DNA of 64,000 bases, from assembly GCA_017515795.1 (NCBI GenBank), contig JAFWEE010000013.1, positions 2,010 to 66,009 of the forward strand, written 5' to 3'. Both the position numbers and the translations under genes were made by a program. Below the pieces are notes generated by a model. It ran no database searches. It saw nothing but the letters and a program-made list of their open reading frames with translations, and was not told the DNA's origin. Source of the stretch: Bacilli bacterium (lineage in GTDB: Bacteria > Bacillota_I > Bacilli_A > RF39 > UBA660). This document shows, piece by piece, positions 2,467-42,964 of the stretch. Numbering within the stretch: position 1 is the first letter of the stretch; every line of letters begins with the position of its first letter.

Positions 2467-3054
2467 TTATTCATTATATTCAATTGGTTCTGATCTTGTA
2501 CAAGAACCACCATTATTTTTTATAAAGAAATCTATTTTATCTAATGCTTCATAAGCATCACTTGTATCTATATCTATTATATTTGATAAGTAAGCATCTC
2601 CACCGGCTTCTTTTATTTGTCCTGTTGTCTCATAGTATAAGAATTCATATCCATATGTTTCATCATGTATATTACATGTAATAGATATATTCATAAGTCT
2701 ACCAGAGTTCTTTTCACGAATATTTTTAAATAATATATTGGCTACTATTAATAAAATTGGTAATAGAATTAGTAGGACTACTATTACTTTGATTATTTTT
2801 AATGTTAAACCTGCTAGTTTTTCAGTATTAGATGTTTTTTCTACTAATACTTCTTTTATATCATTATTAGTTAATTCATCTAAACTAACATTAAATATTT
2901 TAGATAATTCTTTTGATTGTTTTAAATCAGGAGAAGTTTCACCTAGTTCCCATTTAGAAATAGTTTGTCTAGCTACTCCTACTTTTTCAGCAAGTTCTTC
3001 TTGTGATAAACCATTCTTTTTTCTTAATTCCATTATCTTTTTTCCAATTTCCAC
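2467..3054 (-). CDS. XRE-family HTH regulator with one TM helix and extracytoplasmic C-terminus
   Basis: LRKKNGLSQEELAEKVGVARQTISKWELGETSPD; hydrophobic IIKVIVVLLILLPILLIVANI; start moved to GTG at 3054 after AAAGGAGG. Confidence 0.85.
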   Translation of the reverse strand: MEIGKKIMELRKKNGLSQEELAEKVGVARQTISKWELGETSPDLKQSKELSKIFNVSLDELTNNDIKEVLVEKTSNTEKLAGLTLKIIKVIVVLLILLPILLIVANILFKNIREKNSGRLMNISITCNIHDETYGYEFLYYETTGQIKEAGGDAYLSNIIDIDTSDAYEALDKIDFFIKNNGGSCTRSEPIEYNE

Positions 3055-3181
3055 AATAATCCCTCCTTTCAAATACAATCATATGATATTTGAAGTATGT
3101 TCTCTACCATTTTTAACTGGAAATTACGCCCTTTTTCTTAACATTTATTATAACATAATAAAAAGCAAATTAAAAATCTGC

Positions 3182-4739: not shown

Positions 4740-5489
4740 TTATCCTAGTCTTTTATTTATATTTCTATAAGTCATAGCTTCTTTTGGAAAATCGGCTTCT
4801 ATTTCTTCCTTATTCTCTAATTGTTCTTTTACTGATGCCATAAATGATTTTATAGTATCTGTAATCTTATCAGCTTCTTCTCTTGTAATACCATATTTAA
4901 CTAATTCTTCATCTGTGAAAGCAACTTTTCTTAAATGATATAAGTAGAAGATTTCACCAAGATGTAATCCTTGACTTCTCATCCTAAGAACTTCAGGATG
5001 TTTTCTTAAAGTTTCTATTATATCTTCGTTATCCATATCTACTTGAGATTCAAAGTCATACTTTAAAAATGGAATTGACGAATTTACTTTATCTAACATA
5101 TGAACTATTTTAGCTTCAAGATCTTTTTTCTCTTCAAAAGATGTAGAAGATCCTTCAAAATTCATAATATCATGATATTCACTTATTAAATATTTCATTG
5201 CTATAGCATTTACTCTTTGTTTTTCTTCTGGCGTAACACCTTCAAATCCTGTTATATCTCCTGTTATAACTTCTTCAAAATCATGATTTAAAGCATAATC
5301 AATCATTTTAAGAGTATCTACATTACTTGGTAAATATGGACCTAATAATCTAATCATAACTATTAAGTCTACAACGTGGTCTTTAACATCTTCTGTTCTA
5401 TCTCTTTTTATTTGCCATTGAAGAGGTCCACTTCTTCTTAGATCTCCAAGCATATCATAAGTAACATATAATTTTGCTTCTTTTTTCAT
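4740..5489 (-). CDS. HD-domain phosphohydrolase (YfbR-like nucleotidase)
   Basis: LRRSG..., EDVKDHV and ALNHDFEEVITGDI motifs. Confidence 0.75.
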   Translation of the reverse strand: MKKEAKLYVTYDMLGDLRRSGPLQWQIKRDRTEDVKDHVVDLIVMIRLLGPYLPSNVDTLKMIDYALNHDFEEVITGDITGFEGVTPEEKQRVNAIAMKYLISEYHDIMNFEGSSTSFEEKKDLEAKIVHMLDKVNSSIPFLKYDFESQVDMDNEDIIETLRKHPEVLRMRSQGLHLGEIFYLYHLRKVAFTDEELVKYGITREEADKITDTIKSFMASVKEQLENKEEIEADFPKEAMTYRNINKRLG

Positions 5490-8789: not shown

Positions 8790-8878
8790 ATGCACACTCT
8801 CCTAATTTTATAGTAGCAACTATAAATATAATTAGCAATATATATAGACAAGGGGTTTACAATAATAAAAGCAGAATA

Positions 8879-9391
8879 TTAATTCTGCTTTTTTATATTT
8901 ATACATATACCTATAATAGATCCCACTACTATAAAAGGAGCTACTCTCATAAATATCCATTCAAATGCTTGATAAAATGTTCCTAATATAGCCCATTCAG
9001 TAATAGTATAATCCCACTTCTCATAAGGTCTATCTAATATAGCAAATAATATAAATAATAAAAGAGTTCCTATACCTATAATAATAAAAGTTTTAATTCT
9101 TTTCTTTCTTTTCTCTTTTTGATAATTAGATAATTGTTCATTAATAACTTCTAATTTTTCAGATATTACTTTTAAATCATTTTTTTCTTTTATTTCTATA
9201 TTTTCTCCAAGTATATCACTTACAGGAGTTTCAAATAACTCAGATATATTTATTAACATCTCAGCATCTGGTACAGATAAACCTTGTTCCCATTTAGATA
9301 TAGTTTGTCTAACTACATGTAATTTAATACTTAATTCTTCTTGTGAAAGTCCTTTTTGTTTTCTTAATGTTTTAAGATTATCTTTTAACAT
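8879..9391 (-). CDS. XRE-family HTH regulator with C-terminal TM helices
   Basis: LRKQKGLSQEELSIKLHVVRQTISKWEQGLSVPDAEML; start moved to ATG 9391 after AAAGGAGG. Confidence 0.85.
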   Translation of the reverse strand: MLKDNLKTLRKQKGLSQEELSIKLHVVRQTISKWEQGLSVPDAEMLINISELFETPVSDILGENIEIKEKNDLKVISEKLEVINEQLSNYQKEKRKKRIKTFIIIGIGTLLLFILFAILDRPYEKWDYTITEWAILGTFYQAFEWIFMRVAPFIVVGSIIGICINIKKQN

Positions 9392-9483
9392 AATAATTCC
9401 TCCTTTCACATATATATTATTATAATTATATGAGGAGCTACAAGCAATGATTTTTAACATTTGTTTATATTATATGTTAGATA

Positions 9484-9533
9484 TATTTTTAGATAAAAAT
9501 ATTAGTTTAAAAATATATTTTTATCTAAAAATA
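9484..9533. repeat. Perfect 19-bp inverted repeat, 12-bp spacer
   Basis: TATTTTTAGATAAAAATAT (9484-9502) / ATATTTTTATCTAAAAATA (9515-9533). Confidence 0.85.
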
Positions 9534-9622
9534 ATATATATAAGGATTAAAATTTTATTTTATATATATTAAAAATTGTATTTTAGTATTACTAAAAAGG
9601 AGTTTTAGTATTGGAACTCTTG

Positions 9623-9814
9623 CAAAAAATAGATTTTTGAGATCAAAAGGACTCAAAAACCAATTTTTTGGAAGAAAAGACTCAAAAAAAGAGATTTAGA
9701 GAGAATAAGGAGCAAAAAAATGATTTTTGTATAACAAAAATGACTTTTTTGCATATATATTTATAGTTTTATATTCAAAAAATAAATTTTTGTATAGCAA
9801 AAATTATATTTTTG
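9623..9814. repeat. Array of six CAAAAA-N5-TTTTTG boxes
   Basis: Copies start at 9623, 9654, 9713, 9735, 9776, 9798; degenerate copies near 9683, 9828, 9881. Confidence 0.85.
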
Positions 9815-9938
9815 AAAGAATATTAATCAAAAAAGAGATTATTAATAGATTTTTATTACTAAAAAGATATTATTGGTAAGTAAAAATAGAATTTTGGGAA
9901 AAGAAAAAGAACCAAAATTGGTTCTTCGTTTGTAACAA

Positions 9939-11441
9939 TTAACTTCTTGCTTCTTTAGACTCAATTATATCATTTAAATCATTAATGATTTTTCTGCATT
10001 CCTCAGCTGATACTTTTACATTATTTTTAATACATTCTTTTGGATGAACAAGATTTCTTGTTACACGTATTTCATGTGCTTTGGTAGACTCATACCAATA
10101 TGGTTTAACAACAATTTTCAATTTTTGAATAATCTTGTTTAATTCTAAATCTCTTCCATCATCACCTAAAGCCACATCTAATATATTATCAGTCTTCTCA
10201 TATTCTGAAAGCCAATCTAACAGAATAGCTTCCAAAATAGAACCACATAGAATAATTGCAGATTTATAAGCGTTATTTTTAAAGCAAGTCTCAACCTCTT
10301 TTAAATCGTCGTTAATTAGTTCTTTAATCACTTTGTTTTTCATTTTAGAAATTGCACTAATAATATCATCATTGATTATTTTTTGTGATTCACTTTTATA
10401 TTCGGATTTATATGAATTTCTAATTAACTCATTGATCTCATATGGAGTAAGTTTTTTCGAATTCATAGTATATTGCATAACTTCATCAGCATTTTTAAGC
10501 ATCTCTTCAGTTGGAACAATTACTTTTAATTCTCCAAAATCCTTTTTCGTTAAAGCAGGAAAATATGAGCAATGTTGTGTAGAATTAAAGTAAATTCTAG
10601 CTTTTTCATCATTTAAATAACTAACTAAATAGTTATTCATTTTCTTCTCTTTAACTCTTAAAATACAATAGTTTCCAGATTTTATGTACACATCATCATA
10701 GTTTTTATTATATAAATAGAACTTTGGCTTTTCACCTACAAGTAAACAAATAATATCTCCATTAACAACTTTTATTGCTCTCGACAATCTTGCCTTAGGC
10801 AATTTTTCATAAACTAACGGATATTCAAAAGATTTTGAATCAATATATTTTGCTTCTATATCCTTATCAGTTGGCGCAGATACTATATCTGCTATATCTT
10901 TTAATAGTTTATATTCACTTTCTTGAAGTTCTTTCCTTATCTTTATGGCCTGCCTTGTATAATATATTGGATTTAGATTATTTTCATCAAACATTGAATA
11001 ATCACTTATGTTAAGATCATCTCTATCTACTTTATTCATTTCAATATAAGAATTAATATTTTCAATAAAATTATTAAAATCTTCAGTTTTATTTTTTAAC
11101 TCATGCCATTTTCCATCATAAGGACTTTTTCCTTGCTTTTCTGCTACTTTACCATTAAATATACCTGTTAAAAAAGTGGATGGTTTTGACATTGTAAAAT
11201 GAATTAAAGCAAAGTTGATTCCTGTCAAAGCAAATGGGCTTGGAATTTGAATAATAATATCTATATATTTATCAGCAATCGACTCACAAATGTTTTTGTT
11301 TAATACTCCTACTGGTAATAATGCATAATCATATTTATATGATCCATCTACAATTGAATCATATAAAGAATCCCTACCTATACCATAAAGAGGATATTTT
11401 TGTCTATATTCAAGTACTTCATCAAAATTCATTTTATTCAC
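9939..11441 (-). CDS. Fusion of a methyltransferase C-terminal remnant, an HsdS-like target recognition domain and a HEPN domain
   Basis: ALLPVGVL...IQIPSPFALTGINFALI (MTase-like, no SAM-binding or NPPY motif); LKDIADI...NGDII...YLVSYLN...ALTKKDFGELKVIVP (TRD); EVETCFKNNAYKSAIILCGSILEA...RNLVHP (HEPN RX4H). Confidence 0.65.
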   Translation of the reverse strand: MNKMNFDEVLEYRQKYPLYGIGRDSLYDSIVDGSYKYDYALLPVGVLNKNICESIADKYIDIIIQIPSPFALTGINFALIHFTMSKPSTFLTGIFNGKVAEKQGKSPYDGKWHELKNKTEDFNNFIENINSYIEMNKVDRDDLNISDYSMFDENNLNPIYYTRQAIKIRKELQESEYKLLKDIADIVSAPTDKDIEAKYIDSKSFEYPLVYEKLPKARLSRAIKVVNGDIICLLVGEKPKFYLYNKNYDDVYIKSGNYCILRVKEKKMNNYLVSYLNDEKARIYFNSTQHCSYFPALTKKDFGELKVIVPTEEMLKNADEVMQYTMNSKKLTPYEINELIRNSYKSEYKSESQKIINDDIISAISKMKNKVIKELINDDLKEVETCFKNNAYKSAIILCGSILEAILLDWLSEYEKTDNILDVALGDDGRDLELNKIIQKLKIVVKPYWYESTKAHEIRVTRNLVHPKECIKNNVKVSAEECRKIINDLNDIIESKEARS

Positions 11442-42514: not shown

Positions 42515-42964
42515 ATGGATATTTATGAAATAAATAAAAATACTTTAGCTATTATTCCTATTGGTTATAATAAATCTAAAGTAATAGAAAAAGATAATGA
42601 ATTTGTAGTAAATATGGAACCATTAAGTATAATTAAATATAGTTGTGAATATTTTGGTTCAACATACGAAGGAAGACATGCAGGCACAAAATCTATAATG
42701 AACATAACTCATAAATCACCAATTATAATAGAAGAATCTCATAATTTAATATGTTTTCCAACTACATCACCAAGACTTACTGGATGTTCATGGATTATAT
42801 TAAATAATATTAAGTCATTTAATGGTAATCATGAATCTACAGACATTATATTTGATAATAATTATGTATTAAATATAGGTATTTCTATTAATTCATTTGA
42901 GAATCAAGTACATAGATCATATATGTTAGAATCATTACTTAGAAAAAGAATAGAAAATTATTAA
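42515..42964 (+). CDS. comK: ComK-family competence transcription factor
   Basis: PLSIIKYSCEYFGSTYEGR...THKSPIII...FPTTSP...CSWI. Confidence 0.8.
   Translation: MDIYEINKNTLAIIPIGYNKSKVIEKDNEFVVNMEPLSIIKYSCEYFGSTYEGRHAGTKSIMNITHKSPIIIEESHNLICFPTTSPRLTGCSWIILNNIKSFNGNHESTDIIFDNNYVLNIGISINSFENQVHRSYMLESLLRKRIENY

Follow-up and report, generated by a model that had tools for sequence, protein, structure and literature searches.

A helically phased array of palindromic A/T-tract boxes at the edge of a defence island, a predicted platform for a ComK-family regulator

About 330 bp of non-coding DNA bordering a defence island of an uncultured gut bacterium hold twelve helically phased copies of a 17-bp palindromic box, C-A5-N5-T5-G. 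We lean towards reading this array as some twelve predicted sites for a ComK-family regulator encoded 33 kb away, together forming a stand-alone platform. The box itself is probably a K-box-type site with an extended consensus, which would have been multiplied into a phased array of twelve away from promoters. Positions given below are those of the window, that is, the whole stretch of 64,000 nucleotides analysed here.

The array and the border of the defence island

The features of the locus are, from left to right:

8879 to 9394, minus strand: membrane-anchored XRE-family HTH gene, monocistronic, neighbour of the array
9484 to 9533, no strand: two perfect 19-bp palindromic arms, TATTTTTAGATAAAAATAT / ATATTTTTATCTAAAAATA, 32 bp apart
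9536 to 9568, no strand: 33-bp block ATATATAAGGATTAAAATTTTATTTTATATATA, which accompanies the array and is near-identical in both module copies of the sister species
9570 to 9897, no strand: the whole array, twelve helically phased 17-bp palindromic boxes (C-A5-N5-T5-G), six exact and six with two mismatches
9570 to 9586, no strand: degenerate box TAAAAATTGTATTTTAG, two mismatches
9592 to 9608, no strand: degenerate box CTAAAAAGGAGTTTTAG, two mismatches; holds the first copy of a 13-bp repeat
9623 to 9639, no strand: exact box CAAAAAATAGATTTTTG
9654 to 9670, no strand: exact box CAAAAACCAATTTTTTG
9683 to 9699, no strand: degenerate box CAAAAAAAGAGATTTAG, two mismatches
9713 to 9751, no strand: double box (9713 + 9735) with the 5-bp spacer TATAA
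9776 to 9814, no strand: second double box (9776 + 9798) with the 5-bp spacer TATAG and an AT-box spacer of 8 bp
9828 to 9844, no strand: degenerate box, two mismatches
9859 to 9875, no strand: degenerate box, two mismatches; holds the second copy of the 13-bp repeat
9881 to 9897, no strand: degenerate box, two mismatches, the final one before the island border
9906 to 9927, minus strand: intrinsic terminator of the HEPN-fusion gene, at which homology with the sister species stops

Exact matches to CAAAAANNNNNTTTTTG start at 9623, 9654, 9713, 9735, 9776 and 9798. An earlier note made from the sequence had named these six positions and had suggested counting the motif genome-wide against a null; the positions hold, and the count is far above expectation, since dinucleotide-preserving shuffles of the window contain 0.05 exact boxes on average and never more than 1, and none was found elsewhere in the 684-kb assembly (17 contigs, 66% complete). 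Two-mismatch boxes start at 9570, 9592, 9683, 9828, 9859 and 9881; those at 9683, 9828 and 9881 had been noticed before and are real, and the other three are additions. The 13-bp direct repeat TATTACTAAAAAG, which had been described as bracketing the array, does occur at 9587 and 9854 but forms no separate bracket, as its copies are parts of the degenerate boxes 9592 and 9859. The start-to-start spacings of the twelve boxes are 22, 31, 31, 29, 30, 22, 41, 22, 30, 31 and 22 bp, which places all of them on one helical face (Rayleigh R=0.85 for a period of 10.3 bp, a value that 0.05% of random-gap arrays attain, p ~5e-4) and bears out the helical phasing claimed earlier. The array consists of units about 30 bp and about 63 bp long that occur in duplicate, the second double box being part of the 63-bp unit.

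The ORFs that run across the array are all mechanical, 32-50 codons long, and every one except a 34-codon frame is disrupted in the sister species by stops or a frameshift; the earlier statement that the array contains no ORF is thus right in substance if not to the letter. With a permissive E-value, Rfam returned nothing beyond chance-level matches for 8800-10300. Promoter-like sites in the array region number 6, compared with 6.5 +/- 2.2 in shuffles, and our promoter scan of the region placed no convincing promoter adjoining any array box. In DNA sequencing runs the array is present, with variation, in other gut-metagenome strains, and in one DNA sample the sequence departs from the window after 9540. 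Four metatranscriptome runs yielded short, diverged contigs from relatives only.

The locus is chromosomal. To the left of the array lie secE, sigH, rlmB, mrnC, a YhcG-type nuclease gene, divIC and the XRE gene, and to the right lies the defence island, with a HEPN fusion, a BglII-like nuclease, Dcm, a DGQHR/DndB-like protein, an HNH protein and a kinase. The origin of replication is at about 39.5 kb of the window, roughly 30 kb from the array, in the gene order rnpA, dnaA, dnaN, comK, recF, gyrBA. The array sits in a gap of 500 bp that separates the XRE gene from the HEPN-fusion terminator. Its distance upstream of the nearest promoter, that of the XRE gene (TTGCTT-17-TATAAT at ~9419-9447; the gene also has its own terminator), is 175-480 bp. 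The two palindromic arms in the same gap (9484-9502 and 9515-9533) have the reversed, MogR-like form TTTT-N5-AAAA with a 19-bp spacer and fall inside a highly conserved proximal segment (99.4%). Indeed, the 175 bp adjoining the XRE start (9395-9569) are 99.4% identical in the sister species, above every flanking gene, and a 41-codon ORF at 9447-9572 (SD GAGGAG, 9 nt, ATG) is intact there.

The XRE gene is itself accessory. The window encodes two paralogous XRE-HTH proteins with C-terminal membrane segments less than 7 kb apart (2467-3078 and 8879-9394), each adjoining accessory genes, and another relative (G004) has an 83% identical orthologue (L119, G004 C53, 1504-2919) placed after an ABC-transporter permease and before a Fic-domain gene. 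By comparison of the loci, this orthologue has the same promoter and does without the array. We considered the XRE protein as a general binder of the box and rejected it: full-length orthologues occur only in the sister species and in G004, where the gene lies elsewhere in the genome with the same promoter and no array, and boxes occur in many genomes that lack it.

The sister species (G006) belongs to the same genus as the window genome (G000), with core genes at 93-96% nucleotide identity. It shares the XRE gene and the array, its version of which has five exact boxes and two additional degenerate ones; array copy number differs between the two species by a 39-bp indel. Beyond the border it carries a type III Res gene in place of the window's cargo. 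Because homology stops at the terminator 9906-9927, the left border of the variable defence cargo is placed by sequence comparison at ~9910, and since the cargo differs beyond that point the array is on the conserved side of the border. The suggestion in the earlier note that bent DNA marks an island boundary agrees with the phasing and with the end of homology near 9910, but bending is a property rather than a function.

Array identity between the two species is 89.7%, compared with ~78% for ordinary intergenic DNA. Within 9615-9822 only 1 of 72 box-specified positions has changed, against 13 of 136 others (Fisher p=0.04), and among the six paralogous exact boxes the 12 specified positions are 100% identical while N5 is at 35% and the flanks at 29%. 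Because the box positions are kept, N5 and flanks are randomised and few box changes separate the species, the alignments indicate that the 17-bp palindromic box is under selective constraint.

The sister species also has a second module copy, shortened and inverted, consisting of the palindrome, the near-identical 33-bp block and an array that ends in a double box. By synteny with comK it lies at the far side of the same variable region (the contig adjacency is inferred), and both array copies have a terminator on their island side. The array appears to be a stand-alone platform because terminators wall off both copies and neither abuts a promoter. On the same deduced contig order, the segment between the copies holds Res, a CI-like repressor, a tyrosine integrase and a RelA/SpoT-domain gene; these element genes (L148 59-2079) include a repressor of CI/LexA-like type and a RelA/SpoT-domain protein of 938 aa. 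Direct repeats of the form TTGTTCCC(N3-4)TTGTTCCCAAGAA stand just inside each inverted module copy (L011 7858-7885 and L013 3010-3035, on contigs C9 and C2). From its gene content and repeats, this segment looks like an integrative defence element with att repeats, and the arrays fall outside these putative att repeats. In the window we found no second module or att-like repeat and, in its island, no integrase or transposase.

The box at promoters of related genomes

Pairs of exact boxes at a distance of 21-45 bp were sought in 401 genomes of the family and turned up only in the window genome, its sister species and a member of another genus (G090). The array itself is limited to the window's species and one sister species among these 401 genomes and, being confined to the two, shows itself to be a recent, dispensable elaboration.

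The single box is more widespread. It is found directly upstream of the -35 element of a stand-alone ssb gene in at least 10 related genomes from several genera. When stand-alone ssb orthologues from 20 genomes were compared, 11 of ~19 had at least one box (up to one mismatch, within 260 bp upstream), against an expected total of 0.07 boxes, and none of the eight housekeeping rpsF-ssb-rpsR copies had one. The usual layout at stand-alone ssb is the box, 2-4 nt, TTTGCA or TTTGTA, ~17 nt and TAnTAT. Where the dyad recurs at orthologous promoters in several genera, its N5 sequences are unrelated.

A scan of 185,579 prokaryotes, one genome per species, for the double box with a 5-bp spacer returned 10 genomes, seven of which are uncultured gut Bacilli or Tenericutes-type MAGs. 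A triple box (22 + 31/32 bp) stands directly before ssb in HRGM_2006, Clostridium sp. CAG:433 and UMGS855 with the same TATAA spacer, and the first double box of the array, whose TATAA spacer is identical, therefore has counterparts at ssb promoters in other genera. Our metagenome scan added at least six contigs with a triple box at a stand-alone ssb, and all low-GC matches among those listed were ssb promoters. The double boxes of Prevotella pallens, a Woesearchaeote and Saprospiraceae were set aside as unrelated repeats in genomes without ComK, as were metagenome matches with periods of 19, 29 or 37-39 bp, which are tandem repeats of other organisms. Contigs of Bacteroidota type (GC ~0.42) carry intergenic repeats of GCAAAAAC-N-CTTTTTGCA, four to five copies with a period of strictly 22 bp (L155, L168 and at least about 45 other metagenome loci, with Prevotella pallens among the genome matches); they are superficially similar and unrelated to the array.

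In G090 we counted 13 exact boxes, and the reversed control motif did not occur. Three precede a small stand-alone ssb and two precede comEA-comEC, so that paired exact boxes stand before both; two lie at a contig end, and the other six form triple-box modules (42-bp period) before TTGACA-17-TAATAT promoters of a multicopy gene. This gene (~340 aa, at least five copies, L052-L057 on six contigs, several at contig ends) has no Pfam match, and on a full-length match to the Rpn-type model TIGR01784 at a sub-threshold E=0.0045 its product weakly resembles Rpn-type nucleases. G007, of the same genus, has boxes ahead of two YhcG-type nuclease genes and one adhesin gene.

The window's own genome has 16 AAAAA-N5-TTTTT cores outside the array, most of them terminator hairpins. 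Two of the three intergenic cores that are not terminators lie at the ssb and ftsW-comEA-comEC promoters, and the third lies inside the promoter of one uncharacterised gene. The ssb promoter of this assembly is on contig C2 at ~4740-4830, the window being on contig C10. At contig C7:8585-8640, outside the window, an 18-bp box variant, CAAAAAATAATATTTTTG (N6), fills the spacer of a TTGACA-17-TAATAT promoter that serves a 259-aa gene with no Pfam match; a paralogue adjoins this gene. Relaxed boxes (one to two mismatches) outside the array showed no excess over the reversed control, and a composite search of this genome for a box followed by TTTGCA yielded nothing useful.

Boxes at comEA are confined to genus g78, and comEA was rejected as a general member of the regulon. 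In most genomes comEA follows ftsW, and the ftsW-comEA promoter lacks a conserved box in most of them, so the competence link rests mainly on ssb. Across 20 genomes (L275-L298) comEA is in most cases directly behind a ftsW/rodA-like gene, and a conserved element, TTGTAAATAAAGTGTTATTTAAT, is present upstream of the ftsW gene in the genus.

ComK as candidate reader, and the alternatives

One further feature of the window is needed here:

42515 to 42964, plus strand: gene for a ComK-family regulator, with dnaN and recF on either side; proposed reader of the box

The homologue of ComK that the earlier note had placed at 42515 is genuine, with a full-length match to PF06338 (E=4e-44). ComK is single-copy in 29 of 41 relatives and present in nearly every genome of the family; it is encoded in all seven related double-box genomes and absent from the three unrelated chance-match genomes. 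At class level the co-occurrence of ComK with boxes at stand-alone ssb is consistent, though from a small sample. We found no published description of ComK targets in these uncultured small-genome gut Bacilli.

A ComK K-box consists of two AAAA-N5-TTTT AT-boxes with spacers of 8, 18 or 31 bp, which are whole helical turns, with ComK making its contacts in the minor groove, which is narrow at the A-tracts of the curved DNA (PMC3536758, PMC8170675). The AAAA-N5-TTTT pattern is satisfied at eight array positions, including all six exact boxes. K-box registers are found with spacers of 18 bp (9594 to 9625 and 9625 to 9656, so that the register at 9625, in box 9623, has type II geometry on either side) and of 8 bp (9715 to 9736, the type I geometry of the first double box, and 9779 to 9800), and one gap of 28-30 bp is one base short of the 31-bp class. 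As a family, the box meets the K-box position just upstream of -35, at ssb in more than 10 genomes and at comEA-comEC in G090; the array itself has no K-box-like promoter position, being 175-480 bp from the XRE promoter with a terminator opposite.

Several observations temper the link to competence. The comK promoter has no box here or in six relatives, and comK autoregulation through the box was rejected, as nothing stands upstream and the AT-box just past comK is its terminator. No strong T2SS-E/ComGA match was found in the window's genus, which removes comG as a marker, and the PilB loci of 30 other genera showed no box enrichment. At whole-genome level G000 and G006 have no T2SS-E/ComGA/PilB-type ATPase at E<1e-20, compared with two to three in almost all other family genera, and the window's genus keeps comK, comEA, comEC and the stand-alone ssb despite this missing ATPase. 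Our reservations about ComK and competence are thus the boxless comK, the missing ComGA-type ATPase, the restriction of comEA boxes to one genus and the C/G flanks, which are invariant and outside the described ComK site.

On the sequence evidence, ComK is still the most likely reader of the box, and quite probably the actual one. The multi-site ComK-type platform proposed in the earlier note is accordingly the favoured reading for its AT-box core, its spacers and the ssb and comEA-comEC boxes, with the qualification that the array is not at a competence promoter and that comK is boxless; the co-occurrence it had suggested checking appears as boxes at ssb and comEA-comEC in relatives and as an array at the island border, not as an array at a competence gene. 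We propose that ComK would read the box, with each box taking one dimer and all sites presented on one helix face of intrinsically curved A-tract DNA, and that several dimers or tetramers would occupy the array once ComK accumulates. The likeliest role would be that of a high-affinity sink, buffering or sharpening the response to ComK; we place it first because all six perfect boxes of the assembly lie in the array. Alternatively, the array may serve as a nucleoprotein block, architectural or insulating, at the edge of the variable defence region; that it is a classical promoter element is less likely. Rosenblum et al. observed no extra cooperativity with four synthetic boxes (PMC8170675), and the array is therefore unlikely to be just a stronger activator site.

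A more specific version of the sink, in which the array is a natural ComK decoy that titrates the first dimers and so sets the threshold for ssb, DNA-uptake and nuclease genes, seems to us improbable as a whole. Such a decoy would stand in for the autoregulatory K-box that is missing from the comK promoter here. In a variant of it, ComK-loaded inverted modules would mark or insulate the borders of defence cassettes that are swapped during transformation.

The rival that survives best is that another dimeric A/T-tract regulator, such as a repressor of DNA-processing or nuclease genes, reads the boxes and that the array is its multi-operator. The invariant C/G flanks and the strict 17-bp dyad do resemble a classical HTH-dimer operator, one box of the own genome sits inside a promoter spacer as a repressor site might, and MogR is a precedent for an unrelated protein that reads phased T4-N5-A4 sites. 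The boxless comK promoter fits as well, as does a regulon (ssb, YhcG-type and Rpn-like nucleases) that is only partly one of competence. However, no protein offers itself as a candidate, the XRE protein being absent from most box-bearing genomes, and spacing by two, three or four turns combined with an AAAA-N5-TTTT core is a signature specific to ComK. A MogR-type operator in particular was rejected, as the array has the opposite polarity and PF12181, the MogR family, had no match in 17 genomes in a search run without a positive control. We regard a regulator other than ComK as unlikely, though as the alternative most worth keeping in mind.

It would take no dedicated protein at all if curved A-tract modules resembling UP elements had been tandemly duplicated as a by-product of the repeated replacement of cassettes at a recombination hotspot. 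Units of 30 bp and 63 bp are duplicated within the array, which varies in copy number by the 39-bp indel, is restricted to one lineage and lies exactly at the border of variable cargo, and promoter-like hexamers are no commoner in it than in shuffles. Such an origin is hard to reconcile with the 12 specified positions kept in six boxes whose N5 and flanks are randomised, or with the same dyad at orthologous promoters of several genera with unrelated N5; nor are UP elements dyad-symmetric. We think this improbable.

Arrays of sites spaced by 22 bp are typical of Tn7-type and Mu-type ends, and the module of palindromes, block and array could likewise be the end of a mobile or recombining unit, serving as a recombinase or transposase platform or as cassette-flanking homology. 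The second, inverted copy in the sister species speaks for this, together with the Res, CI-like repressor, tyrosine integrase and RelA/SpoT-domain genes that by synteny lie between the copies and the TTGTTCCC..TTGTTCCCAAGAA repeats just inside each. Yet the adjacency of the two contigs is itself deduced, the arrays lie outside the putative att repeats, and the window has a single module and no island integrase or transposase. The boxes are moreover palindromic rather than directional and the same box serves ordinary chromosomal promoters, so that we consider a mobile end very improbable. The earlier note's iteron-like array would amount to a replication origin of iteron type, or to a partition centromere, belonging to an integrated plasmid or phage. 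This reading has in its favour a repeat period of ~22 or 31 bp in AT-rich DNA but can be practically dismissed, as the units are palindromes and not direct repeats, the genes within 10 kb include no rep, par or phage gene, a Pfam scan of the flanking genes matched no rep, viral contigs gave no match to the double box, the locus is chromosomal and 30 kb from oriC at dnaA, and the same box is an ordinary promoter element elsewhere.

Significance and relation to known systems

A large group of uncultured gut Bacilli with small genomes keeps comK beside the origin of replication, and for this group the phased pairs or triplets of C-A5-N5-T5-G are a concrete cis-element. The promoters described above give a first sketch of its regulon, namely stand-alone ssb, comEA-comEC in one genus and PD-(D/E)XK-type nucleases, and the twelve-site array is the strongest concentration of the element that we found. 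If the array is a ComK sink or a boundary element of a defence-island hotspot, control of competence would be linked to the replacement of defence genes; should ComK not bind it, the array points to an undescribed regulator that reads A-tracts.

Several known systems share features with the array. MogR of Listeria reads the reverse motif, TTTT-N5-AAAA (PMC1435793). Its sites are alike in being multiple phased A/T-tract sites with a dimeric reader and whole-turn spacing, but they have the T-tract first, overlap promoters and repress flagellar genes, and this polarity fits only the palindromes at 9484-9533 and not the array. Decoy or titration arrays of transcription factor sites, such as synthetic tandem operators and natural buffering repeats, also place many high-affinity sites away from the regulated promoter, whereas titration by the present array is purely deduced; to our knowledge, no natural ComK decoy has been described. 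With Tn7 and Mu ends and the iterons of theta plasmids the array shares the ~22-bp site spacing at the edge of accessory DNA and, in the sister species, an inverted copy, but its sites are palindromic, no transposase or Rep accompanies it and its box is used at housekeeping-type promoters.

The closest comparison is with the K-boxes of B. subtilis, which stand at the comG, comK, addAB and ssbB promoters among others. The array differs from them in having 12 sites instead of 2, A/T runs of five bases with invariant C/G flanks, and no adjoining recognisable promoter or competence gene; unlike in B. subtilis, comK here is without a box, and the host genus is without comG. The AT-box core is nonetheless identical to that of the array boxes, and the two are alike in the single helical face, the attainable 8-bp and 18-bp spacers and the curved A-tract DNA. 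A ComK-family protein is likewise encoded, and in relatives the box stands just upstream of the -35 element of an ssbB-like gene.
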